From NCBI GenBank assembly GCA_001786765.1, contig MFTH01000010.1, forward strand, positions 34,105 through 98,104: DNA of 64,000 bases. The letters are read 5' to 3'. Below the pieces are notes generated by a model. It saw only the letters and a program-made list of their open reading frames with translations, was not told the DNA's origin and did not search any database. Below, piece by piece: positions 7,199 to 63,880 of the stretch. The position numbers were made by a program, and so were the translations under genes. The stretch comes from Candidatus Nomurabacteria bacterium RIFCSPHIGHO2_01_FULL_37_25 (GTDB lineage: Bacteria > Patescibacteriota > Minisyncoccia > Phycocordibacterales > UBA9973). Every line of letters begins with the position of its first letter. The stretch's first letter is position 1.

Positions 7199-8716
7199 AT
7201 GCAAACACAAACAGAACAGCAAAAAATAGGCTATTTTATTAAAGAATTACGCGAACATCGCGGGATGACACAAAAGCAATTCGCCAAAATGTTAAACACT
7301 TCCCAAAGCTCAATTCCCCGAATGGAAAAAGGTGAGCAGAATTTCACGACAGAATTACTTTTAAAAATAAGCAATGTTTTAGACCACCAGATAGTTTCTA
7401 TAAATGATTCTATTGATTTCAAAGTTAATGGAGGAAAAAAATTAAATGGAACTATTAAAACAAATTTTTCAAAAAACGGTTCTGTCGGACTTTTGTGCGC
7501 TTCTCTTCTAAATAGTGGCAAAACGACACTCCATGGTATTGCCCGGATTGAAGAAGTTTATAGAGTAATTGAAATTCTAGAGAGTATCGGAGTGACAGTC
7601 AAATGGATTAATCAAAACACTTTGACAGTCATACCTCCAAAGAAATTTAATTTAGAAAATATTAATATTGACTCAGCAATAAAAACACGTTCAGTTGTTA
7701 TGCTAATAGGACCACTCATTCATAAGTTGTCTTCTTTTTCTCTTCCACATCCCCATGGTTGCAATCTAGGCAAACGCACAATTGCGGCGCATATATTTGC
7801 ATTAGAAAAACTTGGGGTAAAAATAAAAACTACCGCAAAAAATTATGAGATAACTAAAGGGAAACTCAAAAGAGGAGAAATAGTGATGTATGAATCCGGA
7901 GACACTGCTTGTGAAAACGTTTTGACAGCTTCTGCCCTTATTCCGGGTACTACAAAAATAAATTTCACCAGCGCAAACTACATGGTGCAAGAAGTATGTT
8001 TTTTTCTTGAGGTGTTAGGAGTAAAAATTGACGGAATTGGCGCCTCGAGTTTAACTGTTCATGGAATAGCTCATATAAATAAAGATGTTGAATATTGGAA
8101 CAGTGAAGACCCGATCGAATCCATGATGTTCATTTCCGCCGCAATCGGGACTGATTCACATATAACCATCACCCGCGCTCCTATAGATTTTTTGTCTCTA
8201 GAAATAGAAAAATTAAAGAGAATGAATTTGAAATATAAAATTTCAAAAATTTATCATTCTTATAATGGTCGTACTAAACTCGCTGATATAGAAATCTTTC
8301 CAAGTAAATTAAAAGCCTTAAATGACAAGCTTCATTCCAACCCTTACCCGGGAATAAATATAGACAACCTGCCATTTTTTGTGCCGATTGCCATAAAGGC
8401 CAAAGGTCAAACGATGATTCACGATTGGGTTTATGAAAATAGAGCAATATATCTGACAGAATTAAATCGTTTAGGCGCTGATATCACTCTGGCTGACCCT
8501 CATCGTCTATATATAAATGGCGGAACACCACTGAAAGGAGCTCAGGTCGTCTGTCCCCCAGCTTTGCGTCCATCAATGGTGATTCTTATTTCAATGCTAG
8601 GAGCTAGCGGAACTTCAATCCTGCGAAATGTTTATATGATAAATCGTGGTTATGAAGAAATTGCAGAGAGGCTGAATTCTATCGGCGCAGATATTAAAAT
8701 AATTAAAGGGAATTAA
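7199..8716 (+). CDS. murA: UDP-N-acetylglucosamine 1-carboxyvinyltransferase with N-terminal XRE-type HTH domain fused
   Basis: N-terminal HTH_3 (GMTQKQFAKMLNTSQSSIPRMEKG), then full MurA (active-site Cys in HPHGCNLGKR, C-terminal RGYEEIAERLNSIGADIKIIKG). Confidence 0.8.
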   Translation: MQTQTEQQKIGYFIKELREHRGMTQKQFAKMLNTSQSSIPRMEKGEQNFTTELLLKISNVLDHQIVSINDSIDFKVNGGKKLNGTIKTNFSKNGSVGLLCASLLNSGKTTLHGIARIEEVYRVIEILESIGVTVKWINQNTLTVIPPKKFNLENINIDSAIKTRSVVMLIGPLIHKLSSFSLPHPHGCNLGKRTIAAHIFALEKLGVKIKTTAKNYEITKGKLKRGEIVMYESGDTACENVLTASALIPGTTKINFTSANYMVQEVCFFLEVLGVKIDGIGASSLTVHGIAHINKDVEYWNSEDPIESMMFISAAIGTDSHITITRAPIDFLSLEIEKLKRMNLKYKISKIYHSYNGRTKLADIEIFPSKLKALNDKLHSNPYPGINIDNLPFFVPIAIKAKGQTMIHDWVYENRAIYLTELNRLGADITLADPHRLYINGGTPLKGAQVVCPPALRPSMVILISMLGASGTSILRNVYMINRGYEEIAERLNSIGADIKIIKGN

Positions 8717-12334: not shown

Positions 12335-14752
12335 TTAATATCCTTTATTTTTTATCAAAAGCTCTAAAAATTCTTTTGGAAATATTGGTTTTTTTTCAGC
12401 TAATGCTTGATGATATAAAACCGTTGAAGGAGTAAGCCCCGGTAGAGTATTAATTTCAATTATTATAATATTGCCTGTTTTAATATGAACAAAGATGTCT
12501 ATTCTCGCATAACTCTTAACACCGACTCTCTCAGCAACCATTTCAATCAAACTTTTAACCTTATTTAAATTCTTTTCTGAAATAATTTCTTTAGGTGGTG
12601 GAGTAATGTTCACACCAGTACCTCCTTGAAATTTTTCTTCTACGCTTAATATCGTGTCTTCAGCAATGGTAATGGACGGTGAAAATGATCTGATTTTACC
12701 GTTCTCTTCAAAAACTCCAACTGTCATTTCCACATATCCGCTTTTAGGAATGTGTTTGATTTTGCCCCCATGCACTTTTAATTTATCCGTCTCAATAAAT
12801 GATTCAAAAATAATGTCTTGCACTTTTCCTTCAGGCATATCAATACTATTGATCTGATTTGTGAAAGTGTGTGGCTTGGCCACTTTAACTTTGTTTTTTA
12901 TTAAAGAAATATAAGTAGCCAAATCTTTTTTATTAAAAAGTCTAACCACGCCGGCTGAACAACCATCGCCCCTAGGTTTGCCAATAATCGTTTTTGTGCC
13001 AAATCTCTTTATAAGCATGTTCCAATGTGACTCTATGAGAGTATCATCCATATTGTTCGGAACATCATTTATCTTAAAAAGGGCATGCGAAGCAATGCTC
13101 ACATGTTCAATTTCTTCACTTTCTATTTTTTCATTTATCGCCCATTTATCCATACACAAATGAGAAGTAACGCTATCAGGTCCGTTGAAGATAACTTTTT
13201 TATCTTCTAAAATTTTCTGGATAGTGCCATCTTCACCTATCCCCCCATGTAAAGCTAAGAAAATAAATTTATGCTTTGTTATGACTTCATCCAAAGAATA
13301 TTTTTTAGGTATAAAAAAATCTTCAGTGGTGTCGGATTTTTCTAAACATAATTTTATTTTTATTTTTTCAATAAGATAAGAAAGCCTCTTAACATTTTTT
13401 TTCGCATTTTTAGCATTTTGAATTATTTCCTCAACAGTGTGATTGAGAATGTATGAGTAAGGAAGCTCCCAGACTTCTTTTTTTGGACCCAATAAATAAG
13501 GATAAGGTTTATAAATAAAAGAGCTACGTAATTTAAGCCAGACATTTGTGCCACTCATCAGTGAGACTTGCCTTTCGGCTGTTTCTCCGCCAAAAAGCAC
13601 TGCTAAAGGCTTGCGTTTTTTAGTAATAAAAATATTCTCGACAGATGTTTTAATTTTTCGACGTATAAACGCATTGTTCACAATATAGCGAAAAATATCT
13701 TGATGTGAAAAGCCAATTCTAGAGGATTGCTGAAACAAGAAACTATTCTGCTCCATACCAGAAATAGGATTAAAATCAGAAAACCAAATATTCCCGTCCG
13801 GCATTAAAAAACCATCAAAACGCGCGAAATCCCGCATACCAAAAACAGAAAATAATTGTTCTGCTTCAATTTGAATTTTTTCAATAATTTCGTTGCTAAA
13901 TCTCGGGGGACAATGATAAGTAACTTGATTGGTCGGCAGATATTTTTTACGAAAATCAAAAAATTGATTTTGATCATACTTCATTTCTACCTCTGAAGGT
14001 ATAAGAGCAACAGGCCTATTAAATTTGTTTTGTAATATAATTACGGTAAATTCTTTTCCATCAACAAAAGGCTCTATCACTACGCGAGTGTCTATACGCT
14101 TACTAAATAAACTTAAAGTCGCCTCAACTGCGTCTTTAATGTTCTCCACAGAGAAAACACCAATACTAGACCCACCAGAAGCTGGTTTTACTATTGCGCG
14201 ATTTATTTTTTCTTTTTTCCAGAATTTATTTACCTTGTTGATAATTTCTTTTTTAGTATCAGTAATTTTTATAACAATAGAATTCGGAGCATAAAAATGA
14301 AGTGAACGAAGATATTCATTTGCTTTATATTTATCAAAAGATATTTTGCAACTTTTTGATGAAGATCCGATAAATTGAATCCGATGTTTTTCTAAAAAAC
14401 TTTGAATCTCTCCGTCTTCACCAAATGATCCGTGAATACAAGGGAAAACAATATCAACACTTTTTAAAATACGAACAAGCGCTGATTCTTTTAGTTTGGA
14501 TTTATTGTCCAACTTAAAATCAAAATCGCTTGGAGTATTGGAATACAATTGAGCAATGGATATTTTATAAGGCTTTTTATGTTCATTGAAATAAATTGGA
14601 ACAATTGTCACATTTTGACTTCCCAGGTGATCTAAGACACTTCGAGCAGAGTTCATAGATATACCCCTCTCTAGCGATGGCCCACCACATAATACAGCTA
14701 CAGAAACTTTTTCATCTTTATTTTTTATGGATTTTTTATACATTTTTTGCAA
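12335..14752 (-). CDS. ddl: Tandem D-alanine--D-alanine ligase fusion (two complete Ddl/ATP-grasp modules in one 805-aa protein)
   Basis: Two Ddl N-domains (VAVLCGGPSLERGIS...; LAVLFGGETAERQVS...) and two HG.FGEDG motifs; adjacent to alr. Confidence 0.75.
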   Translation of the reverse strand: MQKMYKKSIKNKDEKVSVAVLCGGPSLERGISMNSARSVLDHLGSQNVTIVPIYFNEHKKPYKISIAQLYSNTPSDFDFKLDNKSKLKESALVRILKSVDIVFPCIHGSFGEDGEIQSFLEKHRIQFIGSSSKSCKISFDKYKANEYLRSLHFYAPNSIVIKITDTKKEIINKVNKFWKKEKINRAIVKPASGGSSIGVFSVENIKDAVEATLSLFSKRIDTRVVIEPFVDGKEFTVIILQNKFNRPVALIPSEVEMKYDQNQFFDFRKKYLPTNQVTYHCPPRFSNEIIEKIQIEAEQLFSVFGMRDFARFDGFLMPDGNIWFSDFNPISGMEQNSFLFQQSSRIGFSHQDIFRYIVNNAFIRRKIKTSVENIFITKKRKPLAVLFGGETAERQVSLMSGTNVWLKLRSSFIYKPYPYLLGPKKEVWELPYSYILNHTVEEIIQNAKNAKKNVKRLSYLIEKIKIKLCLEKSDTTEDFFIPKKYSLDEVITKHKFIFLALHGGIGEDGTIQKILEDKKVIFNGPDSVTSHLCMDKWAINEKIESEEIEHVSIASHALFKINDVPNNMDDTLIESHWNMLIKRFGTKTIIGKPRGDGCSAGVVRLFNKKDLATYISLIKNKVKVAKPHTFTNQINSIDMPEGKVQDIIFESFIETDKLKVHGGKIKHIPKSGYVEMTVGVFEENGKIRSFSPSITIAEDTILSVEEKFQGGTGVNITPPPKEIISEKNLNKVKSLIEMVAERVGVKSYARIDIFVHIKTGNIIIIEINTLPGLTPSTVLYHQALAEKKPIFPKEFLELLIKNKGY

Positions 14753-19907: not shown

Positions 19908-19918
19908 TACTCAAACAC

Positions 19919-19970
19919 ACCCGCCCGGGTGGGAGAGAACCTTCTCCCAACGGAGCGGGTTTTCTTTTTG
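19919..19970 (+). terminator. Rho-independent terminator (nested GC stem ACCCGC...GCGGGT plus TTTTCTTTTT)
   Basis: Inner hairpin TGGGAGAGAACCTTCTCCCA, outer stem, T-run. Confidence 0.65.
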
Positions 19971-20025
19971 TACTACGAAACATAAATTGAGATAACTTCT
20001 TAAGATTTCCGCATATGCAGAAATC

Positions 20026-20817
20026 TCACGAAACAATCACCGTAAACTCCCCTTTTTGTTTAACAGGGTTTTGAATTAAGTAATCTAAAATTTCTTTCGG
20101 CGTACCGGTTTTCAATTCTTCATAAATTTTTGTCAGTTCACGGGCGATACAGACTTTTTTATTGGGGCAAAATTTAGTGAGTGATTCTAAAGTTTTTAAA
20201 ATTCGATGTGGAGATTCGTAAAATACCATTGTTCTTTTTGATTCGGCAATTTCCTTAAATAAAGTTTCTCTGCCTTTTTTATGCGGTAAAAATCCTAAAA
20301 AAGTAAATTCGTGTGTCGGCAATCCAGAAGCAGAAAGCGCAGTGATAACAGCACTTGGTCCTGGTATAGGAATCACATCTACGACTATGTTAACATTCTC
20401 TGCGATAGCAGAGTTTGTTAAAAAGTTAAATTTTTCTCTAAACCCTTTAGAAGAAGGGTGAAGCGATTCAGCTTTGTTGAATTTAGCTTTTATCTCTGAG
20501 ACAAGCATAGCGCCAGGGTCTGATATCGTGGGAGTGCCAGCGTCAGAAACCAATGCCAAATTTTTCCCCCCTTCCAATAACTCAAAAATCTTTGCTAATT
20601 TACTGTTTTGTCTAGAGTTTTTCCCGGCAACATCGTCAGACGGATAGCTCATCGTTGGCGTATTAATATTGTATTTTTCTAAAATTTTTTTCGTCTGTCG
20701 CGTATCCTCACACAATATCAGATCAACACTTTTTAGTGTTTCAATCGCTCGGAGTGTGATATCCTGCAAATTCCCTATCGGCGTGGCAATAACATAAAAT
20801 TTAGACATTTTGATCAA
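20026..20817 (-). CDS. rsmI: 16S rRNA 2'-O-methyltransferase RsmI (tetrapyrrole-methylase family)
   Basis: YVIATPIGNLQDITLRAIETLKSVDLILCEDTR N-terminus. Confidence 0.85.
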   Translation of the reverse strand: MIKMSKFYVIATPIGNLQDITLRAIETLKSVDLILCEDTRQTKKILEKYNINTPTMSYPSDDVAGKNSRQNSKLAKIFELLEGGKNLALVSDAGTPTISDPGAMLVSEIKAKFNKAESLHPSSKGFREKFNFLTNSAIAENVNIVVDVIPIPGPSAVITALSASGLPTHEFTFLGFLPHKKGRETLFKEIAESKRTMVFYESPHRILKTLESLTKFCPNKKVCIARELTKIYEELKTGTPKEILDYLIQNPVKQKGEFTVIVS

Positions 20818-28370: not shown

Positions 28371-29336
28371 TTATTTCAGCATCTGTGTTATCAAAGAAAC
28401 CATCAAATCTTTTTTGTTGGGATTACTCTCAGCAATTAGAAGTGTGAGTGCTGTAAGCGCATTTGGATTTATTTTTCTTATGGTTTTTATTCTCGTCTTC
28501 TTTAGAAACCAAATAAAAGCAAAAGCGCCAGAGCGTTTGTTGCCATCTATAAACGGATGATTTTTTACCATAAAATACAGCAAATGCGCCGCCTTTTCTT
28601 CAATGGTTTTATAAACTGGATTTCCGTCAAATGCTTGCATTACATTACCAACTATCCCTTCAACGCTCCCCTTCTTTCTTTCTTGAGCAAAAATATCTGT
28701 CATGTCGCCAGTTTTCATTAATTCTTTGCGTAAATTCAAAATTCCATTCATCAATTCTTCACCATTCAACTTGATTGATTTTTTATTCACACCAATCGGG
28801 CTTAAAGTCTCTTTATCGTACGCATCAAGCGATACCCAAGTACTAGAAAATTCTTTAATTAATTCAATCACTGCTTTTGGGTCAAGTGTAATATGCTCTG
28901 GTAATAACATTTGAATATCACCCACCGACTTCATAAAGGCATCATAATTATTCCCAATTTGTTTGCGATTTATTGTATAACCTTTAACAATATGTTCACG
29001 AATAATTTTCGTAGCCCATTTACGAAATTCCATTGCGCGTTTTGAATTAGTTCTGTAACCAACGGCTAGGATAATATCAAGAGAATAAACATTCACTGGT
29101 TTATCTGAATTTGTAATGTGCATTTTTTGCACATTGCTTTTTCCATCAATTTCCCGATCTTTGAGAATGTTCTTTATATGTTTTGTAACAACGGAACGAT
29201 CGGTTTGAAAAGCTTTAGCAATTTGAGCTTGTGTGGCCCAAATTGTCTCTTTCTTAAAATCCCCCCGAAGTTCTATAGCTCCGTTTTTTGCTTGATAAAT
29301 TACAATATTATTTTGTATAATTTTCTTCTTCATCAC
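28371..29336 (-). CDS. RhuM-family virulence protein with C-terminal Fic/DOC domain
   Basis: RhuM N-domain (TQAQIAKAFQTDRSVVTKHIKNIL), Fic motif HPFIDGNKRSGAFAFIWFL. Confidence 0.75.
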   Translation of the reverse strand: MMKKKIIQNNIVIYQAKNGAIELRGDFKKETIWATQAQIAKAFQTDRSVVTKHIKNILKDREIDGKSNVQKMHITNSDKPVNVYSLDIILAVGYRTNSKRAMEFRKWATKIIREHIVKGYTINRKQIGNNYDAFMKSVGDIQMLLPEHITLDPKAVIELIKEFSSTWVSLDAYDKETLSPIGVNKKSIKLNGEELMNGILNLRKELMKTGDMTDIFAQERKKGSVEGIVGNVMQAFDGNPVYKTIEEKAAHLLYFMVKNHPFIDGNKRSGAFAFIWFLKKTRIKTIRKINPNALTALTLLIAESNPNKKDLMVSLITQMLK

Positions 29337-29549
29337 ATAATTTTTACCACATTAAATCATTACTGTAAATGCTTCATCTGGTGCATTCAACCACTATAAA
29401 ATCAAGAATTATGTGTGTAAAATCCATAGTTTTGTTGGGTGATGTTATCTTAACCTTTACGCGAAATTATTTCAAATAAGGTGAAGTGTTTTCTTCAGGG
29501 ATTGGTTTTTGGGCTGTATTTTGGTCATTGGGTATATTTTATATATTAT

Positions 29550-30398
29550 CTATTCACAAAACACCACTTCTTCTACGGGAATTTCTAATTGCTCCGCAAA
29601 CCAAGCTCTTGCCGTTTCCTGATCACCCAATGCATCAACCAATTTATTTTCAAGCGCAAGTGCGCCGGGCATTGAAGAACCATCAGCAAGTTTCGCAACT
29701 TGCTCAACTGGTAAATTTCTATTTTCCGCGACTTCTTTTATAAATTGCTCGTGATAGATTTTTAAATCGCGTTCAATCAAATCTCGCTCCGCAGGTGTAA
29801 GTGGCTTATCAGGATTTCCATAATCTTTAAATTTTGCGGATGCAAGCGAAACATATTGCAACCCTTCTTTAGTATTTTTGGCAGTATTTTCTAAATAAGA
29901 CAGGGTGATGCCGATACTTCCCACATCAGAAAGAGGAGAAGCGATTATTTTTTCAGCGCCTGTGGCTAAGAGATACGCGCCCGAAGTTCCCATTTCCCGT
30001 ATAAGAGCTACAACTGGTAATGAAGAATTTTTGAATCCATTTGCAATAATTTCTGAAGCAACTGGCGAACCACCACTAGAATCAATGCGAGCTAAAACAC
30101 CTAGGACATTCGGATCACTTTCAGCCCATCGAAGTGTATCCAGTGTATCGTCAGGATTCGTTGAAGGGGGCATTTCGTTTCCACTTCCGTCCTCATAAAC
30201 TCCAGCATAAGGGACAATATCTCCAGTTATTGGAATTACAGCAATGTTGCAAGAACCATCACTTATCATTGTGCTTGCGTTATATCCACTCCATTCGTCA
30301 TGCCATGAACCAAATATTCGAAGTCCAACAGCAAATACGACAATTATCGCTAAAGCCCATAGCGTAATTATTTTTAGTTGTGGCTTAATTGTTTCCAT
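29550..30398 (-). CDS. sppA: Signal peptide peptidase SppA (S49, 36K type)
   Basis: N-terminal TM, S49 catalytic-serine region (IASPLSDVGSIGI). Confidence 0.8.
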   Translation of the reverse strand: METIKPQLKIITLWALAIIVVFAVGLRIFGSWHDEWSGYNASTMISDGSCNIAVIPITGDIVPYAGVYEDGSGNEMPPSTNPDDTLDTLRWAESDPNVLGVLARIDSSGGSPVASEIIANGFKNSSLPVVALIREMGTSGAYLLATGAEKIIASPLSDVGSIGITLSYLENTAKNTKEGLQYVSLASAKFKDYGNPDKPLTPAERDLIERDLKIYHEQFIKEVAENRNLPVEQVAKLADGSSMPGALALENKLVDALGDQETARAWFAEQLEIPVEEVVFCE

Positions 30399-30705
30399 AA
30401 GGTTAATTTTAGCATTTTTAATGCTTACATAAAAGTTTGATTTAAAAAAGATACAATTTCTCTATATCATTATTTTTTCTTTCTGATATACTTTAGAAGT
30501 ACTTTTATGCTTTCTAAAACATCATTAATTTCTAAATTTTCAAAATTATTACTCACCATAGAATTTTTAGTGGCAATTTGCTTGACATTGCACCTGTGGG
30601 AAACTTTGACTTTTGAATTAAATTTTGTTAGTATTTAGGTAAGCAAGTAATTCCCCGAACGTGAGGCTCCGTATGGTTCCTCTATATAGCGTTCGGGGAT
30701 TTGCT

Positions 30706-31356
30706 TTATCCAAAAAGTGGATTTTCCTCAACAATATCAGATTTAATAATATTGTAATAACTCTCATCTCCATGTTCATATTTCCTAAATATCGCCCACG
30801 ACAACATATCAACAACCTGTAAGGCCTTTTCTTGTGTTGTAGATTTTATTTCAATATCTATATCAATTTTGTGATTATTTTTTGTCTGACTTTTTAGGTA
30901 AGTAGTGAAATTTTGATTCAAAAACTTGTTTGTCTCTCGTCGTGAAGCAATCAGAGAAATTTTCTCGTCAGTGGGAATAAGTTTTTTAGTATAAACACGA
31001 TCTAAAAGAATATTTGTGACATAATTATATAAAACCTGTTTCTCATCTTGTAGTTTTGTATATACTTTTTTCTTATTCAAATATATAACTAGAACATTTG
31101 ACATGTTTTTCTCTCTAAATAAATTCAGCAATTTTTGTCTTGTCTTTGGAGTTTCCTTGAAAGCATGCAAGACCCCGTTATGATTTTTGACTTCAGTTTT
31201 TGAAAAACCTTTAAAAATCTTTTTTACAATTCTTTCGATTAAAACCTTCTCTTTTACAAATAAAAAAGTGATAATAAAATATTTTGAAGTTTTTTTCTTC
31301 TTAAAATTAAAACCAAGATCCCCGCTTTCGTCTAGGAATATATACGCCATTGTCAA
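30706..31356 (-). CDS. DUF3800-family protein
   Basis: N-terminal IFLDESGDLGF motif characteristic of DUF3800. Confidence 0.6.
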   Translation of the reverse strand: MTMAYIFLDESGDLGFNFKKKKTSKYFIITFLFVKEKVLIERIVKKIFKGFSKTEVKNHNGVLHAFKETPKTRQKLLNLFREKNMSNVLVIYLNKKKVYTKLQDEKQVLYNYVTNILLDRVYTKKLIPTDEKISLIASRRETNKFLNQNFTTYLKSQTKNNHKIDIDIEIKSTTQEKALQVVDMLSWAIFRKYEHGDESYYNIIKSDIVEENPLFG

Positions 31357-31376
31357 ATATTTCTTGAAACTCTTTT

Positions 31377-31943
31377 TTAACTACCTATTTTTATTGATAA
31401 TATTTTTTCAAAAAAACTAATAATGGAATAAGTCATTAAACCAACAAAAAAATTTATAGATGGTAAGAGGTGGTAAAATAATATAGACTTAGGTTCAGAT
31501 ATATTTTCATTAAAAATTACAAATATCAACAACGATGAAAATAATATAAATATTGAATAAGAAAAATAGGCTAATTCTATGTCTTTCCCAGATTTTTCCT
31601 TAAAACCACTTGAAATAAAAATAAAATTACGAACAAGTAAACCAAGTAATCCTGTTGCTAAACTTAATACAAACCAGCCAATTAAGGTAAAATCAATAAT
31701 GAAATTCCAGGGACATAAAATAACTAATGCAAATAAAAATAAAGCGATAATTATACTAACTAACCATTTCGAAACTTTGTCACGCTCGGGCTTATAATCT
31801 TTTTTCTTATCCCAATTTTCGCACTGTTCTTTTATAAACTTCTTTATAGACTTTTCTTCGCCTTCAATTTCAATGATATTTTTGTTTTTATCTATCTTAA
31901 TTTTGGTCATATGTGTGCATAAATTTCTTTTAATATTTAACAA
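31377..31943 (-). CDS. Hypothetical 4-TM membrane protein
   Basis: Charged N-terminal region then four hydrophobic helices; co-operonic with the flanking genes. Confidence 0.45.
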   Translation of the reverse strand: MLNIKRNLCTHMTKIKIDKNKNIIEIEGEEKSIKKFIKEQCENWDKKKDYKPERDKVSKWLVSIIIALFLFALVILCPWNFIIDFTLIGWFVLSLATGLLGLLVRNFIFISSGFKEKSGKDIELAYFSYSIFILFSSLLIFVIFNENISEPKSILFYHLLPSINFFVGLMTYSIISFFEKILSIKIGS

Positions 31944-31949
31944 ACAATT

Positions 31950-34418
31950 CTATTTCAGCAGTTCGTATTCAAACAATTTTGGCTGGATTTTTGTTTCATA
32001 ATATTTATTAAGTTTTGTTTTTAAAGCTAATAGTTTTGTATTTAGTTGAGGATGATCATAAATTATTATTTCATTTTCATCTTTATGGTTAGTATTGAGC
32101 TCATTGTCTATTTGATATGTTCCATAAGTGTATTTGAAATTGTAATTTTTGATTTTCTTAGCCTCACTTAACACTTCCTTGAATGAAGCTAAAAGTTCTT
32201 TTTCTGATTCTAAAAGTTTAAATGATTTCAATTTTTCCGTGGCAACCGTTTTACCATCAAAACATAATTCATTTCGATAAAATCTGCCATCGGAACCATC
32301 GAATGATCTGCACTTATTGAAATAAGATAGACACGTATAAATTAAACAGGATTTTAGAAAATCCTTATCATACGTATAAGCACTGCCACCATCAGATGTC
32401 TTGAAAATGGTACCTTTCTCCCACCAACGACTACCTGAATCATATTTACCAGCCGCAAAAAGTGGTAACTTTTCTAAATAATTACCGGTATGTATATAAA
32501 AACCATGACCATCATACAATCCGCAACGAACCATTGTTGTTGCCAGTCTAGGATGATCAAACCCGAACTCTCTTGAAACTAAATAACCGAGTATGGATTT
32601 ATTGAAGATTGGTTTAATCGAGGCCTTAGTATACTGCTTTTGTGTTTCTCTCCCATCTAACTCAAGTAGAACTCCGACATCATCACTGTTTGTTGCTTCA
32701 TATTTATCATATAATTTACTAATAAGATTATGCGCTTTTTTTACTTTAACCTTATGTAGAGGTGAGATATTCAAAACATTGGTATTTGAGGTACCTTGTA
32801 TATCTATATCGTAAGCCATTAATATAAGTTCTTCCTTTTTCTCATCTAAGTTTTGCCATAAAATACAACTGATTGCCGATGGACCAGCATGAAAATGTAC
32901 ACGATTAAACAAGAATCCATCAATAAATTTATGATCTCCGAGACTAAGCGATTTCCAGTACTTGATAGGACTAAACAATATAAAATAATCATCTGTTTTA
33001 TTTAGATAATATTTATAAGCACTTGAAATAAAAAGATTGGATAAGTCATTTAGTGCTGGTCCTTTTAACTCTCCTCGCAATTGTTCTTTTACATAACTCG
33101 TATAACCCTTAGTTGCATTGGTATGGCTATTGCTTGCAGTATCACGAAATGGTGGATTTTCTAATAAAATAATATTAATTTTTTTATCTTTTACAAAATT
33201 ATTCAACTCAAAAATAGAGTTAATATACTCCTTACTCATTTTTATTTTTCCTTTGCCGAGTATAAATTGCTCACTCAGTGCATCACCCCCATTAACTAAG
33301 GCCTCCTTACCAGAAATTTCACCTGGAGGCGGAATAATCATTTTTACTTTGTTGCCGATGCGTTCATTTAAAACAACCCATTCTTTCAATTCATAGGTGT
33401 TAACAATGGCGTGAGATAATTCATTGTCAAAAATATAATCTCTGATTTTAGTTTTTGTTGGAAATTTTTCAAGGTATTTAAGAGTTATTTGATTAACATC
33501 ATCAAGTTTTAATCTTTTTAGTATGTGGGGGATAAAGTTTGCTTTTTCTGAAATATATTTTTCAATAAACTCATCTGATAAATATTTTTGCAATTCACCA
33601 ATAGTAATATCATTTACCTGTTTATCAGTTAAGAATTCCAAAAGATTGCCGGTTCCAGCGCAACGATCAAGAATAATATAATCATTACTTTTCGGAATCT
33701 GAGCAATAGCTTTACGCACAAGCTCAATGGCTTTTTTGCAGTAGCTAGGAGGCGTATAAAAAGCACCGAGCTCCTTGCGGTGCATCTTATCATTTAGAAG
33801 ATCCATTATATATTTAAAGTCTTTTTCTTCTCCTTTCCATGGATAAATGAACCTTTTAAAATATTTTGGCTCACGAAATTCTTCAAATAATTTAATCTTA
33901 GTGGCTTTAGGATTTTCAGAATAAAAACGATTGGACCAACCGACAACGTCATAGATATCGATAGTCACTTTAGTAAAATTGTTTGTTTGCACTAATTCAA
34001 TGATGCGTTGAATTCCGACTGGTTTATCGTATTTAATAACCTCCGGTTTTATTATTGTACTAAACTTATCATTGCCCTTACTAGCAGCGCCGATAAAAGG
34101 AGGACAGTTAATATATTTATTGGCAAAATCTTGAGACTTAAAGAGGTAGGCAATTTCTTGATTCAGATCTACTAATAAAATGTTTGCAGGAATACTAACA
34201 CCCTTGACACGCATATGGTTTAGATATTTTAGCGCTTGAAAAAGGGTGGTATTGATATTATTTATGTTAAGTTTAAATTCAAATATATTTCCATTATAGA
34301 TACCGTCAGTATTGTTGCTAAGTTCGGTATCTGTAATACCAAATTTACCAAAAAATTCAATTTGCCCTTCGCGCTCAGATAGAAAATTATTTACAGATTT
34401 AAATGTTTTTTTTATCAT
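31950..34418 (-). CDS. MmeI-like type IIG restriction-modification enzyme (N-terminal PD-(D/E)xK-like D-x8-EFK, gamma-class N6-adenine methyltransferase core, C-terminal TRD-like region)
   Basis: Motif X GAFYTP, motif I DRCAGTGNLL, motif IV LLENPPF; N-terminal DGIYNGNIFEFK resembles the MmeI D-x9-ExK nuclease motif. Confidence 0.65.
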   Translation of the reverse strand: MIKKTFKSVNNFLSEREGQIEFFGKFGITDTELSNNTDGIYNGNIFEFKLNINNINTTLFQALKYLNHMRVKGVSIPANILLVDLNQEIAYLFKSQDFANKYINCPPFIGAASKGNDKFSTIIKPEVIKYDKPVGIQRIIELVQTNNFTKVTIDIYDVVGWSNRFYSENPKATKIKLFEEFREPKYFKRFIYPWKGEEKDFKYIMDLLNDKMHRKELGAFYTPPSYCKKAIELVRKAIAQIPKSNDYIILDRCAGTGNLLEFLTDKQVNDITIGELQKYLSDEFIEKYISEKANFIPHILKRLKLDDVNQITLKYLEKFPTKTKIRDYIFDNELSHAIVNTYELKEWVVLNERIGNKVKMIIPPPGEISGKEALVNGGDALSEQFILGKGKIKMSKEYINSIFELNNFVKDKKINIILLENPPFRDTASNSHTNATKGYTSYVKEQLRGELKGPALNDLSNLFISSAYKYYLNKTDDYFILFSPIKYWKSLSLGDHKFIDGFLFNRVHFHAGPSAISCILWQNLDEKKEELILMAYDIDIQGTSNTNVLNISPLHKVKVKKAHNLISKLYDKYEATNSDDVGVLLELDGRETQKQYTKASIKPIFNKSILGYLVSREFGFDHPRLATTMVRCGLYDGHGFYIHTGNYLEKLPLFAAGKYDSGSRWWEKGTIFKTSDGGSAYTYDKDFLKSCLIYTCLSYFNKCRSFDGSDGRFYRNELCFDGKTVATEKLKSFKLLESEKELLASFKEVLSEAKKIKNYNFKYTYGTYQIDNELNTNHKDENEIIIYDHPQLNTKLLALKTKLNKYYETKIQPKLFEYELLK

Positions 34419-34524
34419 AAATTTATTTCAAAAGTTCATCCGCAGAAACCCCTAACGCTTTTGCTAATCTCATAAAAAAACGGATTCGTTTCATATTTTA
34501 CCCTAGTTTTTGATTCGTTCATAA

Positions 34525-35676
34525 TTATTTTTCGGCGCCACTAAACAAGCTAACATATTCATCATAAATATATGATTGACCATATTTCTTATCTTTATCT
34601 TTTGGAGTAAGAATCCCTATTTTTATAAATCTATCAATAACAGTCTGTGCTCCTGCGCGAGTAAACCCTGTCCATTTTTGAACGACAGTATTGTTTACGA
34701 TCGGTTGTCCGTAAAGTTTAGGTAAAACTTTAATGGCGCTTTCTGATGCTCGCTTACCCAATGTCTGTACTTTTCCCATATCCTGTTGGCGTAGCATGGT
34801 GATTTTGCCAACAATATCAATCGCCTCATTAGCAATCTCAATAACTCCATCAAGAAAAAAATCCACCCAATCAGACACAACCCCATGATGATAACCAAAA
34901 AGCTTCTCGTAATAGAGTTGCTGATGTTTCTTGAAGTAAGATGATAAGAAAAGTACCGGCTTCTCAAGAAATTTTTCTTTCCATAAATAGAAAGTGATGA
35001 GCATGCGACCCGTCCTGCCATTTCCATCAAGAAAAGGGTGGATTGTCTCAAATTGCGCGTGCAAAAGACCCGCCTTGATAACGGTCAAGGTCCCATCTTC
35101 ATCGTGCATATAATTCTCAAGATCGGTAAGCGCTTTATGCATCGCATCTACCGGAGGCGGTACAAATCGCGCGTTGTCGGGCCGAGTTCCTCCAATCCAG
35201 TTTTGAGTTTTACGAAACTCGCCAGGATCAGAAAAGTGAGTAGCTCTGGCTTTGTGCATCAATTTTTCGTGAAGTTCTCGGATGAACCGCAGAGTTAAGG
35301 GAAAGTCATCCGCCACTATGCGCTTCATTCCATAATTTAAAGCCTTAATGTAATGCAAAATATCATCAACATCTTCAGGAATGTTTGTATTGATTTTGAC
35401 TTCCGCCTCAATGGCATCAATCATCGTCGCCATAGTGCCCTCGATTTGGCTTGACGAGGCGGCGTCTTTGCGTAAGTACATAAGCAAGAAAAAATCAGCG
35501 TCAGGCAAAAGCTTGGTGATGCCATCTAATTTGCCAAGGAGCCGTGTTGCTTCGTTGTTTTTCTTAAGAATTTTTGAATCAAAATCAAAATTCTCTTTTG
35601 GCGGAAAAGGATTAGGAATAAAGGCTTTAAATCCTTCTTTTTGCTCTTTATTTATGCCAATTTGTATTGATTTCAT
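34525..35676 (-). CDS. Fic-family protein (AMPylator-type)
   Basis: HPFLDGNGRTGRMLITFYLW Fic motif, Fic_N region, C-terminal wHTH. Confidence 0.85.
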   Translation of the reverse strand: MKSIQIGINKEQKEGFKAFIPNPFPPKENFDFDSKILKKNNEATRLLGKLDGITKLLPDADFFLLMYLRKDAASSSQIEGTMATMIDAIEAEVKINTNIPEDVDDILHYIKALNYGMKRIVADDFPLTLRFIRELHEKLMHKARATHFSDPGEFRKTQNWIGGTRPDNARFVPPPVDAMHKALTDLENYMHDEDGTLTVIKAGLLHAQFETIHPFLDGNGRTGRMLITFYLWKEKFLEKPVLFLSSYFKKHQQLYYEKLFGYHHGVVSDWVDFFLDGVIEIANEAIDIVGKITMLRQQDMGKVQTLGKRASESAIKVLPKLYGQPIVNNTVVQKWTGFTRAGAQTVIDRFIKIGILTPKDKDKKYGQSYIYDEYVSLFSGAEK

Positions 35677-35979: not shown

Positions 35980-36054
35980 TGGTGAGCGTGGATGGAATCG
36001 GACCATCGGCCTCTGTCTTATCAGGACAGCGTTCTACCACTGAACTACACGCTC
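35980..36054 (-). tRNA. tRNA-Ile(GAT) with atypical T-loop (TCCGATT), CCA encoded
   Basis: Reverse complement GAGCGTGTAGTTCAGTGGTAGAACGCTGTCCTGATAAGACAGAGGCCGATGGTCCGATTCCATCCACGCTCACCA; canonical cloverleaf but C at the usually invariant U55. Confidence 0.65.
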
Positions 36055-46536: not shown

Positions 46537-46570
46537 GTCTAAGATTTCCGCATATGCGGAAATCTTAGAC
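46537..46570. repeat. 34-bp perfect palindrome GTCTAAGATTTCCGCATATGCGGAAATCTTAGAC (family P3) between convergent genes
   Basis: Perfect dyad; related copies at 20003-20026 and 52081-52106 with half-site 51429-51447. Confidence 0.8.
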
Positions 46571-50061: not shown

Positions 50062-51072
50062 TTATTTTTTAAGCTTATCAACTTTTTTTTCATTCCCCTT
50101 TAATATATGAACTGCTTTTGCAATAAGCGGAATAATATCATTATAAATACGAAGCTCCGGCACTTCTGTCATCTCAAACCACCTAGCGCCATCAAGTCCA
50201 CCAGACTTTTCTAGCTCCAATTCTTTATACTCGCTATATGCCAAAAAGTAAACAACCTTCTTCAGACTTTTACCACGCTCTGGATGTGTCGCCACATATT
50301 CATTCCTTCCAAGTTCTTCTTTTATTACAATATCCAACCCAATTTCCTTTTTAATCGTTTTTATCGTGGCTTCTTTTATATCTTGATATTCTTCAGCTTT
50401 GCCTTTAGAAAGAGTCCAGTAGCCAAAGACGTCGTGCACAAATGCAAATAAAATAGTATTATCGGTTCCTGATTCTGAACTATTATATGAACCAGTAGGC
50501 TTTTTCGCATATACTAATGCGCCCACTAGATTCTCAACTGGCAATTGAGTAACATCTATTACTTCTTTCTGCTTTTTAGATTCAACATCATTTATATTTT
50601 TTTGATATGTTTTTTTATGTCCTTTGTCGGGCTCGCCTATTTCTTTGTAAACTGCGCCGAGCACACCATTTACAAATTTACCAGAATTTTCCCCGCCGAA
50701 AGTTTTAGCTAATTCTATAGCTTCATTGATTGCCACTTTCGGAGGCACCTGGGACCTATCACCAAACAAAAGTTCAGTTAACCCAATTCGTAGGATATTT
50801 CTATCAACAATAGAGATTTTATCTACCGGCCAGTCTGGCGCAGCCTTTTCCATAATCTCATCAATTATCACTCGCTTTTTTAAAATTTTATCGATTAAAG
50901 AAAATACAAAGGGATCTTCCTCAATCCCAGGAGCAAATTCTTTTAAATTTCTATTTAATGCCGTCTTTATATAGTCGTCAACAAAACTATCCCCTTTTTT
51001 TTCTATAGGTAAGAAATCCCACTCAAAAAGCGTTTGAAGCACTATTGATCTTGAAAGGTGCCTATTTGCCAT
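50062..51072 (-). CDS. nusB: NusB-like N-terminal domain fused to C-terminal NUDIX hydrolase
   Basis: NusB motifs (VDRNILRIGLTELLF, KFVNGVLGAV), then NUDIX box GKAEEYQDIKEATIKTIKKEIGL. Confidence 0.75.
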   Translation of the reverse strand: MANRHLSRSIVLQTLFEWDFLPIEKKGDSFVDDYIKTALNRNLKEFAPGIEEDPFVFSLIDKILKKRVIIDEIMEKAAPDWPVDKISIVDRNILRIGLTELLFGDRSQVPPKVAINEAIELAKTFGGENSGKFVNGVLGAVYKEIGEPDKGHKKTYQKNINDVESKKQKEVIDVTQLPVENLVGALVYAKKPTGSYNSSESGTDNTILFAFVHDVFGYWTLSKGKAEEYQDIKEATIKTIKKEIGLDIVIKEELGRNEYVATHPERGKSLKKVVYFLAYSEYKELELEKSGGLDGARWFEMTEVPELRIYNDIIPLIAKAVHILKGNEKKVDKLKK

Positions 51073-51319: not shown

Positions 51320-51459
51320 AATATTTATATCCTAACATATTAGAAGCGAAATGCAATTTTTTTTCAATTTTCTATAAGTTTATGATTGCCAGAAAGTAAA
51401 CGTCTTCTTATTTTTTCCCAACTTTTACGCATATGCTAGAATCTTATGAAAAAGATAAA

Positions 51460-52080
51460 TTAAAATAAATGAAAATTTTTCTTTAACTTTTCTTCTCTTA
51501 AGAAGTTTTCTACAGTCAAAACCTCCACATATTTCCCCACTCCAAAGAAATCAGCAATAAAGATTATTTCGTCTTCACAAGGATAAGGATAAATCCAAGC
51601 GGATTTTTGAAATTGGAAAAAATTTAATTCTTTCAAATGATACCGTAATGCTTCTCTACCTTTTGTAAATCTCATCGGAATATCAAACATAACTAATCTC
51701 CATTTGCTATCCCATCTTTTTGGCTTGTTAATCTTCATCAGCTCAATATCGAAAGCTCTGAGTCTCGTATTTCCTTTTTTAGTAATTTTTACTATAGTTT
51801 TTCCGTTCTTGTCAGCGACATATTCTATGAGTTTTTGACGTCTAATATTATCAATAGCGCTTTGTATTTGTTTTTTAGAATACTTTTTAGATCCTTCAAA
51901 CATCTTAAAACATTGCACTGCATTACCCATAACTCCTGCGCCCAACACCAGCATAGGCATTAAAGATACAGCCAACACACAAAGAGCAACTGTGGAAATT
52001 TTTGCTTCAGTTGTATCAGACTCTAAAAAATCTTTTAATCTCTTTGAATACCCTGCTTTATTATTTTTTCCCATATACAT
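51460..52080 (-). CDS. PaaX-family-like regulator (N-terminal TM segment, wHTH, PaaX_C-like W..W.L..FDIP...LR..L...F.....S.W..P) bracketed by inverted half-palindromes
   Basis: RWDSKWRLVMFDIPMRFTKGREALRYHLKELNFFQFQKSAWIYP matches the PaaX C-terminal pattern; IRs at 51429-51447 and 52081-52099. Confidence 0.45.
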   Translation of the reverse strand: MYMGKNNKAGYSKRLKDFLESDTTEAKISTVALCVLAVSLMPMLVLGAGVMGNAVQCFKMFEGSKKYSKKQIQSAIDNIRRQKLIEYVADKNGKTIVKITKKGNTRLRAFDIELMKINKPKRWDSKWRLVMFDIPMRFTKGREALRYHLKELNFFQFQKSAWIYPYPCEDEIIFIADFFGVGKYVEVLTVENFLREEKLKKNFHLF

Positions 52081-52107
52081 AAGATTCTAGCATATGCGGA
52101 AATCTTA

Positions 52108-52245
52108 GGTAAATAATGCCTCCTTTTTATAGCTCATATGGAGGGCAGGGGCTTGCGCCCCTGCCCTAGAGAGGAAGGGGAAAGTCGATTGAATGGGCTA
52201 GGGGGGTCAGCAACTATTGTTGCTGACCCCCCCCTCCCAAAATAT
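52108..52245 (+). other. GC-rich highly structured element upstream of thrS (two perfect long hairpins inside a GGAGGG/CCCTCC outer stem)
   Basis: GGGCAGGGGCttgcGCCCCTGCCC (10 bp) and GGGGGGTCAGCAACtattGTTGCTGACCCCCC (14 bp). Confidence 0.5.
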
Positions 52246-63212: not shown

Positions 63213-63880
63213 TCAAAGAGACACTTTGACATAATACAGTGAATGAGTAATAGAGATTATAAAAAATTTAATATTGGATCAATAGCTCACATTTACAACA
63301 GAGGAAATAACAAGGAAAAAATATTTTTTGATGATCAAGATTACAGAGCTTTTCTTTTTAGACTTGCTTTAGTTTTAGGATTTGACCAAAAAGAATTACA
63401 AAACGAAAACTTGTTAAGTATGCCTTATTCCAGAATACGAATTGAATTTAAAGGAAAAAATAAATTCAAAATACATGCTTTTTGTCTTATGCCAAATCAT
63501 TTTCATTTATTAATTGAGCAAGTTGGAGATACCTCAATTTCAAAATTAATTTCAAAAGTCTGTTCAAGTTATTCTAAATATATAAATAAAAAATATAAAC
63601 GTGTTGGACATACTTTTCAAGATTGTTTTAAAGCTGTAATTATTGAGAATAATCCTCAACTAATGTGGGTTTCGTCTTATATCCACATGAATGCAGTAAA
63701 AGATGGTTTGGTAAAACACCCTTCTGAATATTTATGGAGTAGTTACAACGATTACACTTCCCTCAGAAATTTACCGTTAGTTACAAAAGAATTATTAATA
63801 GAAACTTTTGGCGATGAGAAAAATTTTATAGAACAAACATTGAATTTTAGTGTCAAAGTGTCTCTTTGACACCCTTACCT
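63213..63880 (+). mobile_element. IS200/IS605-type element carrying a RAYT-like Y1 transposase, flanked by complementary hairpins
   Basis: Left hairpin TGTCAAAGagacacTTTGACA (63215-63235); right GTGTCAAAGtgtctcTTTGACAC (63855-63877), the reverse complement of the left. Confidence 0.7.
63243..63869 (+). CDS. tnpA: IS200-like / REP-associated tyrosine transposase (HuH Y1)
   Basis: HuH motif LMPNHFHLL, catalytic Tyr region (WSSYNDY), ~200-aa RAYT-length form. Confidence 0.78.
   Translation: MSNRDYKKFNIGSIAHIYNRGNNKEKIFFDDQDYRAFLFRLALVLGFDQKELQNENLLSMPYSRIRIEFKGKNKFKIHAFCLMPNHFHLLIEQVGDTSISKLISKVCSSYSKYINKKYKRVGHTFQDCFKAVIIENNPQLMWVSSYIHMNAVKDGLVKHPSEYLWSSYNDYTSLRNLPLVTKELLIETFGDEKNFIEQTLNFSVKVSL

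Follow-up and report, generated by a model that had tools for sequence, protein, structure and literature searches.

A PaaX-like gene in a Nomurabacteria genome is bracketed by two inward-facing palindromes that probably act as its own promoter-operators

Why should a small gene be framed exactly by two inverted copies of one palindrome? This question is raised by a 64,000-nucleotide stretch of DNA from Candidatus Nomurabacteria bacterium RIFCSPHIGHO2_01_FULL_37_25, an uncultivated groundwater bacterium (contig MFTH01000010.1, positions 34,105 to 98,104; the whole stretch is called the window here), a Patescibacteria sequence of Nomurabacteria type with a G+C content of 36%, parts of which are found identically in the NCBI assemblies GCA_001786035.1 and GCA_001786875.1 and in several groundwater metagenomes. 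The gene lies on the minus strand at 51460-52080 and comprises, from the ATG at 52080, an open reading frame of 206 codons for a PaaX-like protein with a winged helix-turn-helix (wHTH) domain and a Cas2-like PaaX_M domain, but no PaaX_C domain. A sequence-only reading of this DNA had suggested that a cassette had inserted into the centre of a palindrome, or that the palindrome arms recombine around the gene, in the manner of integron attC sites or IS200 hairpins. As the same bracket recurs around one gene family in more than 60 further loci, the palindromes are most likely the promoter and the binding sites of the gene itself and not the ends of a hairpin-type mobile cassette. To the specific view that the unit is a self-contained autoregulatory module, in which the gene of a PaaX-like repressor is bracketed by two copies of its cognate operator, each fused to a promoter, we would give a probability of about 60%.

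The palindrome family has the consensus AAGATTTCCGCATATGCGGAAATCTT and exactly four copies in the window. With the 26-mer and up to three mismatches, three matches were obtained against 0.00 expected by chance, and a search of the window with up to six mismatches found no fifth copy. The upstream copy (Up, 52081-52106, minus strand; AAGATTCTAGCATATGCGGAAATCTT, which reads AAGATTTCCGCATATGCTAGAATCTT on the minus strand) adjoins the first ATG of the open reading frame, as had been described, and a weaker symmetry around it reaches to about 52076-52111. The downstream copy (Dn, 51420-51445, plus strand; AACTTTTACGCATATGCTAGAATCTT) is complete but degenerate and asymmetric, with six mismatches from the consensus; its inner arm is identical to that of Up, and its outer arm is of a distinct conserved type. 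The inverted half-site that the sequence-only reading had seen past the stop codon thus exists, but it is the inner arm of a full degenerate copy and not a lone half. The bracket around the gene is likewise real, although its arms measure 21 bp and not 18-19 bp: a perfect inverted repeat is formed by CGCATATGCTAGAATCTTATG at 51428-51448, whose inner end lies 11 nt past the stop codon (51460-51462), and its reverse complement at 52078-52098. When mismatches are allowed, this repeat grows to 57 nt at 77% complementarity. It is the longest perfect inverted repeat of the window with arms at least 300 nt apart, whereas the maximum in 1000 dinucleotide shuffles was 15 bp. A chance origin was considered and rejected.

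The two remaining copies stand alone. A near-palindrome at 20002-20027 (AAGATTTCCGCATATGCAGAAATCTC; formerly placed at 20003-20026), two mismatches from a perfect palindrome and without an arm resembling a promoter -10 box, overlaps the stop codon (20026-20028) at the 3' end of a TP_methylase/rsmI-like gene. The perfect 34-bp palindrome at 46537-46570 was found where it had been reported, between the convergent PGA_cap/S11 gene and maf, and both its arms are of a non-promoter "TCC" type. A tblastn search near these solo palindromes for further or decayed PaaX_M copies returned none.

To place the bracket in its family, we gathered 6 loci by exact-protein look-up, 56 by a scan of one genome per species, and 19 metagenome contigs by DNA pattern; 57 loci were analysed in full, and L-numbers designate loci or contigs of these relatives and metagenomes. 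In 924 kb of DNA from the relatives and the window, the GCATATGC octamer at the palindrome core occurs 138 times, and 119 of these octamers flank PaaX_M genes (58 Up, 61 Dn). Five of the others are non-palindromic intragenic chance matches, and solo sites are rare (about 10). Up, with the layout [outer arm]-GCATATGC-TA(T/G/A)AAT-[outer arm]-ATG, is present in 53-58 of about 60 homologous loci and precedes the gene in all 57 loci of the full analysis. Dn begins 9-50 nt past the stop codon in 61 loci, with a modal distance of 25 nt to its CATATG, its outer arm (AACTTTTCC/GGAAAAGTT) is conserved in the subfamily of the window, and the 19 metagenome contigs repeat the arrangement of Dn and gene. 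The bracket is the standard architecture of the wHTH and Cas2-like family in Nomurabacteria and Paceibacterota, and it recurs in about a dozen different neighbourhoods.

The solo sites in the relatives are of two kinds. Some are Up-like promoters directly in front of other genes, such as that of a major facilitator superfamily transporter (L034:8724) and rpmF (L039:472), as would be expected for a regulon; others are perfect palindromes that lack a -10 and are often found where two genes converge. The orthologous maf/PGA_cap junction of L054 holds a solo of the same type as the 46.5-kb solo of the window. Some loci deviate from the standard layout. A mixed module in L054 (6326-6960) combines a subfamily-B gene and a B-type Up with an A-type Dn; in L063 (10004-10790) an additional A-type Dn stands between a complete B cassette and rpoB; and in L096 Dn is doubled, with the two elements in tandem at a distance of 84 nt. 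A distant paralogue (40-50% identity, about 178 residues) with its own promoter lies between secY and adk in L080-L084 and L074-L078, at an adjacency of the spc ribosomal-protein operon that is otherwise highly conserved.

What the repeated halves contain had been missed by the sequence-only reading: they are extended -10 promoters that face into the gene, and their arms co-vary with the protein subfamily. A consensus promoter scan of the window returned exactly two sites of this kind, both inward-facing and both with the extended -10 TG-C-TAGAAT. The first, at 52084-52092 on the minus strand (TTTACC-18-TAGAAT with TG), lies in the inner arm of Up and would serve the PaaX-like gene; the second, at 51434-51442 on the plus strand (TTCCCA-16-TAGAAT with TG), lies within Dn and is antisense to the gene. 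As both inner arms carry the same -10, the 21-bp inverted repeat can be regarded as two inward-facing copies of one promoter-operator half. The motif is also a property of the family, with TG-n-TAnnnT in the inner arm of Up at 54 of 57 homologous loci and hexamers that are mostly TAGAAT, TATAAT, or TAAAAT. In Dn, the inner arm carries an inward antisense extended -10 at 29 of the 57 loci and at 19 of 26 in the subfamily of the window, whereas the outward-facing halves of Up and Dn carry a -10 in only 3 of 57 each. Taken together with the co-variation of arms and subfamilies, these inward-facing -10 elements point to a promoter/operator function.

The position of the -10 also bears on the start codon. 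In 47 of 57 homologues, the -10 is 7-10 nt from the start codon, and such a short distance implies that a TRTG/extended -10 promoter gives rise to a leaderless mRNA. The -10 of the window gene ends 3 nt from the first ATG (52080) and 9 nt from the second (52074), and because only the latter spacing matches the family norm, translation probably begins at 52074 and yields a protein of 204 residues. The rpmF promoters (window 51320-51360; L077:6996-7070; L039:460-493) have a TATG-n-TAGGAT extended -10 with the start codon a few nucleotides downstream, and that of L039 has the full GCATATGC core; judging by these promoters, leaderless expression may be common in these genomes.

Such promoters raise the question of whether the palindrome is anything more than a generic promoter motif. 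In that case GCATATGC-TAnAAT would be a strong form of the TRTG/extended -10, recognised by RNA polymerase or another factor, and its symmetry would be a by-product or a back-to-back design. The TRTG motif is the -16 region of Gram-positive promoters and accounts for half of the palindrome core; moreover, TATG-n-TAnnAT also forms rpmF promoters without full palindromes (window, L077), and Up-like elements precede unrelated genes. A generic motif, however, should not flank one gene family in 119 of 138 cases, and rpoB and other promoters of these genomes use ordinary TTGACA-N17 boxes. As the solos and many Dn elements keep the core and the symmetric arms without any -10, and as the arm sequence follows the protein subfamily, we consider this explanation quite unlikely.

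The arms themselves are informative in this respect. Across the family, the two-fold symmetry reaches 15 bp to each side of CATATG (36 bp in total), and the asymmetric zone inside the palindrome coincides with the position of the -10. Within a locus, the four half-sites agree at 79% of their outermost 4 nt, against 38% between loci, and the observed value was not reached in any of 2000 permutations. The arm type tracks the recognition helix of the encoded protein: subfamilies with ..SAxDSIKRQK.. have AAGATT arms, those with ..NSINHLRxQK.. have TTGGTAA or TGAGTAA, and those with ..GLRRYKF.. have TTGTGAA or TTGTTAA. Many genomes carry two or three PaaX_M paralogues, and paralogues with different arms coexist within one genome. 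In E. coli, PaaX recognises inverted half-sites that stand far apart, TGATTC(N27)GAATCA, and represses the promoter of its own gene by blocking the access of RNA polymerase (PMC9493321); the half-site found here contains the same GATTC. From the matching of arms and subfamilies, the symmetry, and this precedent, the encoded PaaX-like protein is the most likely ligand of the palindromes.

The PaaX-like character of the protein, already proposed from the sequence, was borne out by both domain search and modelling. Its sole Pfam match is PF20803 PaaX_M (E 1.6e-18, 67 bits against a cut-off of 24), a domain that is also present in the distant paralogues. An AlphaFold2 model based on an alignment of 60 sequences reached a predicted local distance difference test score (pLDDT) of 84 (a model from 28 near-identical sequences reached only 49 and was not used), and a Foldseek search with it gave E. 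coli PaaX (8a39; E 9e-4, 206 aligned columns) as the best PDB match, followed by 3l09. The C-terminal half of the model resembles Cas2 and the N-terminal half resembles winged-helix repressors of the MarR/PadR type; the wHTH assignment holds at the level of the fold, as sequence models gave sub-threshold wHTH matches, and a PDB sequence search with the protein gave no significant match. A hydrophobic helix (residues 28-40) had been considered as an N-terminal transmembrane anchor, which we rejected, as it packs into the modelled winged-helix domain. The PaaX_C domain, the effector domain for phenylacetyl-CoA, is absent: the protein ends about 13 residues past the Cas2-like domain, and there is no Pfam match after residue 193. 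The TIGR02277 equivalog model of PaaX gave 15.8 bits against a cut-off of 264.55. No paa catabolic genes were found in the window or in the loci of the relatives, and the neighbours here are thrS, rpmF, nusB, and rnc. According to its modelled fold, the protein is thus a PaaX without the C-terminal effector domain. Many Cas2-like residues are invariant in the family, including Asp133 at the Cas2 catalytic position, and together with the unusually strong conservation of the protein this hints at a function beyond dimerisation.

In the mechanism that we favour, a dimer or higher oligomer of the PaaX-like protein, with its wHTH domain and its Cas2-like dimerisation domain, would bind the GCATATGC-core palindromes and would occlude RNA polymerase at both promoters, resulting in negative autoregulation as with E. 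coli PaaX at its promoter Px. The Up palindrome would span the region from the -35 to the transcription start, with the gene-proximal arm serving as a TRTG-type extended -10 (TATG-C-TAGAAT) 9 nt ahead of the probable start codon, from which a leaderless mRNA would be made. Dn, which in the subfamily of the window has the same -10 pointing back into the gene, may be an antisense promoter, a roadblock, or both, and convergent antisense transcription, looping, or a roadblock insulating the housekeeping operon downstream could make the autoregulation sharper. The solos at 46.5 kb and 20.0 kb, which lack a -10, would be additional binding sites. Inverted copies of this kind may occasionally recombine and flip the gene, which would be phenotypically silent, as the -10 travels with the gene.

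Several observations weigh against this autoregulatory module. A conserved operator past the stop codon is unusual for simple autoregulation, with a loop, a roadblock, or an antisense promoter as its candidate roles, and the distance between Up and Dn (639-676 bp in the main groups) is not phased and shows no helical pattern. The solos are found between convergent genes, where there is no promoter to control. At outer positions, the sequence differs even between close orthologues while the symmetry is retained, and protein contacts explain this less easily than base-pairing or a copying process would. The sequence of the protein is much better conserved than that of typical local repressors (72-96% identity across many species in the best 120 database clusters), and the unit relocates between syntenic backbones, which goes beyond what regulation alone explains.

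We also considered whether the elements act as hairpins of single-stranded DNA or RNA, that is, as attC-like sites, as substrates of a RAYT transposase as with repetitive extragenic palindromes (REPs) or IS200-like elements, or as transcription terminators. The outer-arm symmetry is indeed kept by compensatory changes, and the 46537-46570 solo between its convergent genes is very stable (z -8.1). It is, however, the only strong hairpin among the copies tested: as single strands, Up and Dn fold no better than shuffled sequences (z -1.3 and +0.6), which, together with the lack of an integrase nearby, speaks against the attC- or IS200-like mechanism of the sequence-only reading. A terminator-like T tract was not found in the window scan, G-T versus A-C mismatch counts had no consistent strand bias, and transcription would start only downstream of the left arm of Up. 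The window does contain a RAYT-like Y1 transposase gene at 63243-63869 (Pfam Y1_Tnp; NCBIfam REP_Tyr_transpos with 68 bits, below the cut-off of 80), but it is 11 kb from the bracket and unlinked to the palindromes, and Y1 homologues occur in only 4 of about 80 loci of relatives, 6-8 kb from the cassette. The window has only four copies in its 64 kb, nearly all of them linked to a single gene family. The hairpin explanation is largely refuted and hardly credible any longer. For similar reasons, we rejected a REP-like proliferation (four copies, and 119 of 138 core octamers flanking PaaX_M genes) and a dif/Xer site (four copies in 64 kb, always tied to the PaaX_M gene family).

Hairpins of another sort do occur in this AT-rich genome. 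Very G+C-rich perfect hairpins were observed at 52139-52245 (two; -38 kcal/mol, z -7.6), 19918-19966, L042:230-620, and L048:4968-5886, that is, between the PaaX-like gene and thrS, beside the 20-kb solo, and in the thrS-rpmF spacers of relatives, and strain variants and many contig breaks coincide with them. Rfam and tRNA scans of the window yielded only three tRNAs, with no match at the palindromes or at these hairpins.

The idea that the arms recombine around the gene fared better in part. In L068, the cassette alone is inverted relative to topA, relA, and parB in comparison with L056 and L066, and in L028, which belongs to the species of the window, the 5' end of the gene is joined via the 21-bp repeat to the rpmF flank, with 100% identity to the window on both sides. 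On the other hand, L028 is a single contig, and its sample also yielded the normal thrS-side junction (L110). Look-ups with the 592- and 582-residue forms of ThrRS did not find the complementary inverted junction. Within the subfamily, none of 20 metagenome sites and none of about 35 genomes were inverted; a scan of JGI metagenomes for the rpmF-side junction of the species gave no match, and a degenerate scan gave 19 contigs, all in normal orientation. The contig ends of three assemblies fall 25-30 nt inside the repeat, where the sequence is extremely rich in A and T, so that L028 may preserve a minority or chimeric read path. Inversion thus looks like an occasional by-product of the inverted repeat.

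We also considered a programmed invertible switch, in which the repeats would flip the gene at an appreciable frequency for phase variation of the regulator or for read-through into rpmF-nusB-rnc. The perfect 21-bp repeat around the gene, the junction of L028, the fixed inversion of L068, and the fact that several assemblies break at or near the repeat are what such a switch would predict. Yet there is only the one junction contig, from a sample with the normal junction as well and from a break zone that permits a chimeric path; the complementary junction and inverted sites in the genome and metagenome sets were missing, and no invertase gene is nearby. In addition, the -10 would be carried along in a flip and an inward promoter is found at either end, so that the output would stay the same. 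We regard a programmed switch as highly improbable.

The assembly breaks deserve a separate description. In independent assemblies of the species of the window, contigs end 1 nt outside the upstream repeat arm (window 52099) in L005, L010, and L027, and 25-30 nt inside the downstream arm (window about 51471-51480) in L029, L110, L114, and L021, the last with a scaffold gap. Such breaks suggest population heterogeneity or a drop in coverage. A co-occurring strain (L111:1-40, corresponding to window positions of about 52077-52112) whose thrS is 99.5% identical has a degenerate Up with the core GGATGTGC instead of GCATATGC; its contig ends 5 nt beyond this Up, and this strain may have lost or rearranged the gene.

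The relocation of the unit bears on the cassette idea, in which a self-contained unit would translocate and invert, with the palindromes as its ends or as the sites of recombination. The site of action of the wHTH and Cas2-like protein itself, or of a host recombinase, would be the symmetric GCATATGC core, and the promoter in the end would play the same part as promoters in the terminal repeats of insertion sequences. Up, gene, and Dn indeed travel as one block, as the sequence-only reading had surmised. With X standing for this block, the contexts are, by sublineage, trmD..X..rpoB, YchF-X-methyltransferase, secY-X-adk, topA-X-relA, rpsB/tsf-X-proS, and purH-X-purE, some of which (e.g., secY-X-adk and purH-X-purE) are otherwise conserved operons. 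The thrS-X-rpmF position of the window is unique among the loci seen, and the nearest orthologues (83-85% identity) are found at trmD..rpoB and rpsB-proS instead. Comparison with relatives confirmed presence and absence on syntenic backbones: thrS-rpmF-nusB-rnc is conserved without the unit in L042 and L077, and topA and relA, which are direct neighbours in the window, have the unit between them in L056, L066, and L068. The maf/smc-PGA_cap junction has a whole cassette in L059 and only solos in the window, L054, and L034. The inverted arrangements of L068 and L028 and the mixed or extra Dn elements of L063 and L054 would also fit a recombining unit.

Other features do not agree with such mobility. 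The empty sites, thrS-rpmF in L077 with a 75-nt spacer and topA-relA in the window with a 32-nt spacer, carry no palindrome. As, in addition, the outer half on the rpmF side (AACTTTTCC) is a conserved distinct type and not a solo arm, insertion into the centre of a pre-existing palindrome is unsupported. The hallmarks of a transposon were absent: no target-site duplications were detected, the distribution of flank repeats equalled the permuted null, and instead of a near-identical multicopy set there is one copy per subfamily and genome, with paralogues at most about 75% identical. No recombinase, integrase, or invertase domain lies within 10 kb on either side or among the annotated open reading frames of the window, apart from the unlinked Y1 gene. 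Contexts are stable within sublineages, the polarity of the outer arms is conserved, with no inverted state in the approximately 35 genomes or 20 metagenome sites, and strong purifying selection and near-universal presence fit a housekeeping gene. We therefore consider a mobile or recombining cassette unlikely and a recombination role of the palindromes possible but minor. A bolder version, in which the protein would be a catalytic or synapsis factor on its own terminal GCATATGC palindromes and the 0.65-kb unit a minimal self-mobilising or self-inverting element with a new Cas2-fold-based recombination system, seems very unlikely to us; if true, copies of a Cas2-fold element would have spread throughout Paceibacterota into places between conserved housekeeping genes, and the element would by now be largely domesticated.

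Some observations at other loci are noted here. About 60-100 nt ahead of rpoB, many relatives (L032-L072) have a TTGACA-N17 promoter and, after it, a conserved leader, GATTCATTGATTGAGTATCGGATGCAATC, which may be a structured leader RNA. The window region 28371-35676, with RhuM+Fic (28371-29336), DUF3800 (30706-31356), and Fic_N+Fic (34525-35676) beside tRNA-Ile (35980-36054), may be an accessory or defence island. The window also encodes unusual fusions, namely of HTH_3 with an EPSP_synthase fold (MurA-like, 7199-8716) and of NusB with NUDIX (50062-51072), as well as a doubled D-Ala-D-Ala ligase of 805 residues (12335-14752).

Bacteria of the Candidate Phyla Radiation have tiny genomes with very few recognisable regulators, and their transcription control is almost unstudied. 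Our literature search found no publication that links PaaX to Patescibacteria, to this radiation, or to Cas2, or that describes this family or motif there. For one of the best conserved small DNA-binding proteins in Nomurabacteria and Paceibacterota, the present data predict which operators it pairs with, together with an operator code for the whole family (arms specific to the subfamily around an invariant GCATATGC core), a promoter type of the TRTG/extended -10 form that yields leaderless mRNAs, and a small regulon of solo sites. An inward promoter-operator pair that brackets the gene would be an unusual design for autoregulation, and the relocation of the unit raises the question of whether a Cas2-fold protein can take part in DNA rearrangement.

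Several known systems share parts of this architecture. The Hin/hix type of inversion system (Salmonella H segment, Mu G, P1 C) also combines a gene for about 200 residues in a segment of about 0.65-1 kb with inverted 26-bp imperfect palindromes, one of which overlaps the promoter and its autoregulation, and with the single junction contig of L028 and the cassette of L068 the inverted orientation may also have been seen here. In contrast to Hin, however, the protein has no serine-recombinase fold, the inverted state is rare, an inversion would leave the linkage of promoter and gene unchanged, and no enhancer or Fis-type element was identified. Integron cassettes are likewise single small genes delimited by imperfect palindromes and found in different places, but they have one attC each, whereas here palindromes stand on both sides, do not fold as hairpins, and enclose a gene with its own promoter, without IntI, attI, or arrays. 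With REP/RAYT and IS200/IS605 systems, the locus shares short extragenic palindromes and a Y1 (RAYT-like) gene in the window; it differs in having four copies instead of tens to hundreds, which are tied to the PaaX-like family and not to Y1, and in flanking copies that are poor hairpins. Free-standing homing endonuclease genes of phages are also small genes with their own promoter between conserved genes, present or absent among syntenic relatives, whereas the gene described here is under strong purifying selection, is almost universal, has no known nuclease activity, and has symmetric flanking sites.

Other parallels are found among regulators. Lambda OL/OR around cI, lac O1/O2, and pR/pL of coliphage 186 provide examples of a regulator gene flanked by two operator-promoter modules for its own product, as proposed here, and face-to-face promoters could interfere in both cases; here, by comparison, the predicted promoters are about 650 bp apart, bracket the whole gene, and show no helical phasing between Up and Dn. 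The fold of the model comes nearest to E. coli PaaX, a GntR-type wHTH repressor of phenylacetate catabolism. The protein described here differs from it in lacking PaaX_C (206 versus about 305 residues), in falling outside TIGR02277, and in having housekeeping neighbours instead of paa genes; its putative operator has an invariant GCATATGC core and an N14 instead of an N27 spacing; and there is a second candidate operator past the stop codon with an inward promoter, as well as several paralogues with distinct operators per genome. Both proteins share the Cas2-like PaaX_M domain and the overall fold, with 8a39 as the best PDB match of the model, and in both cases two-fold symmetric half-sites with GATTC overlap the promoter of the gene itself.

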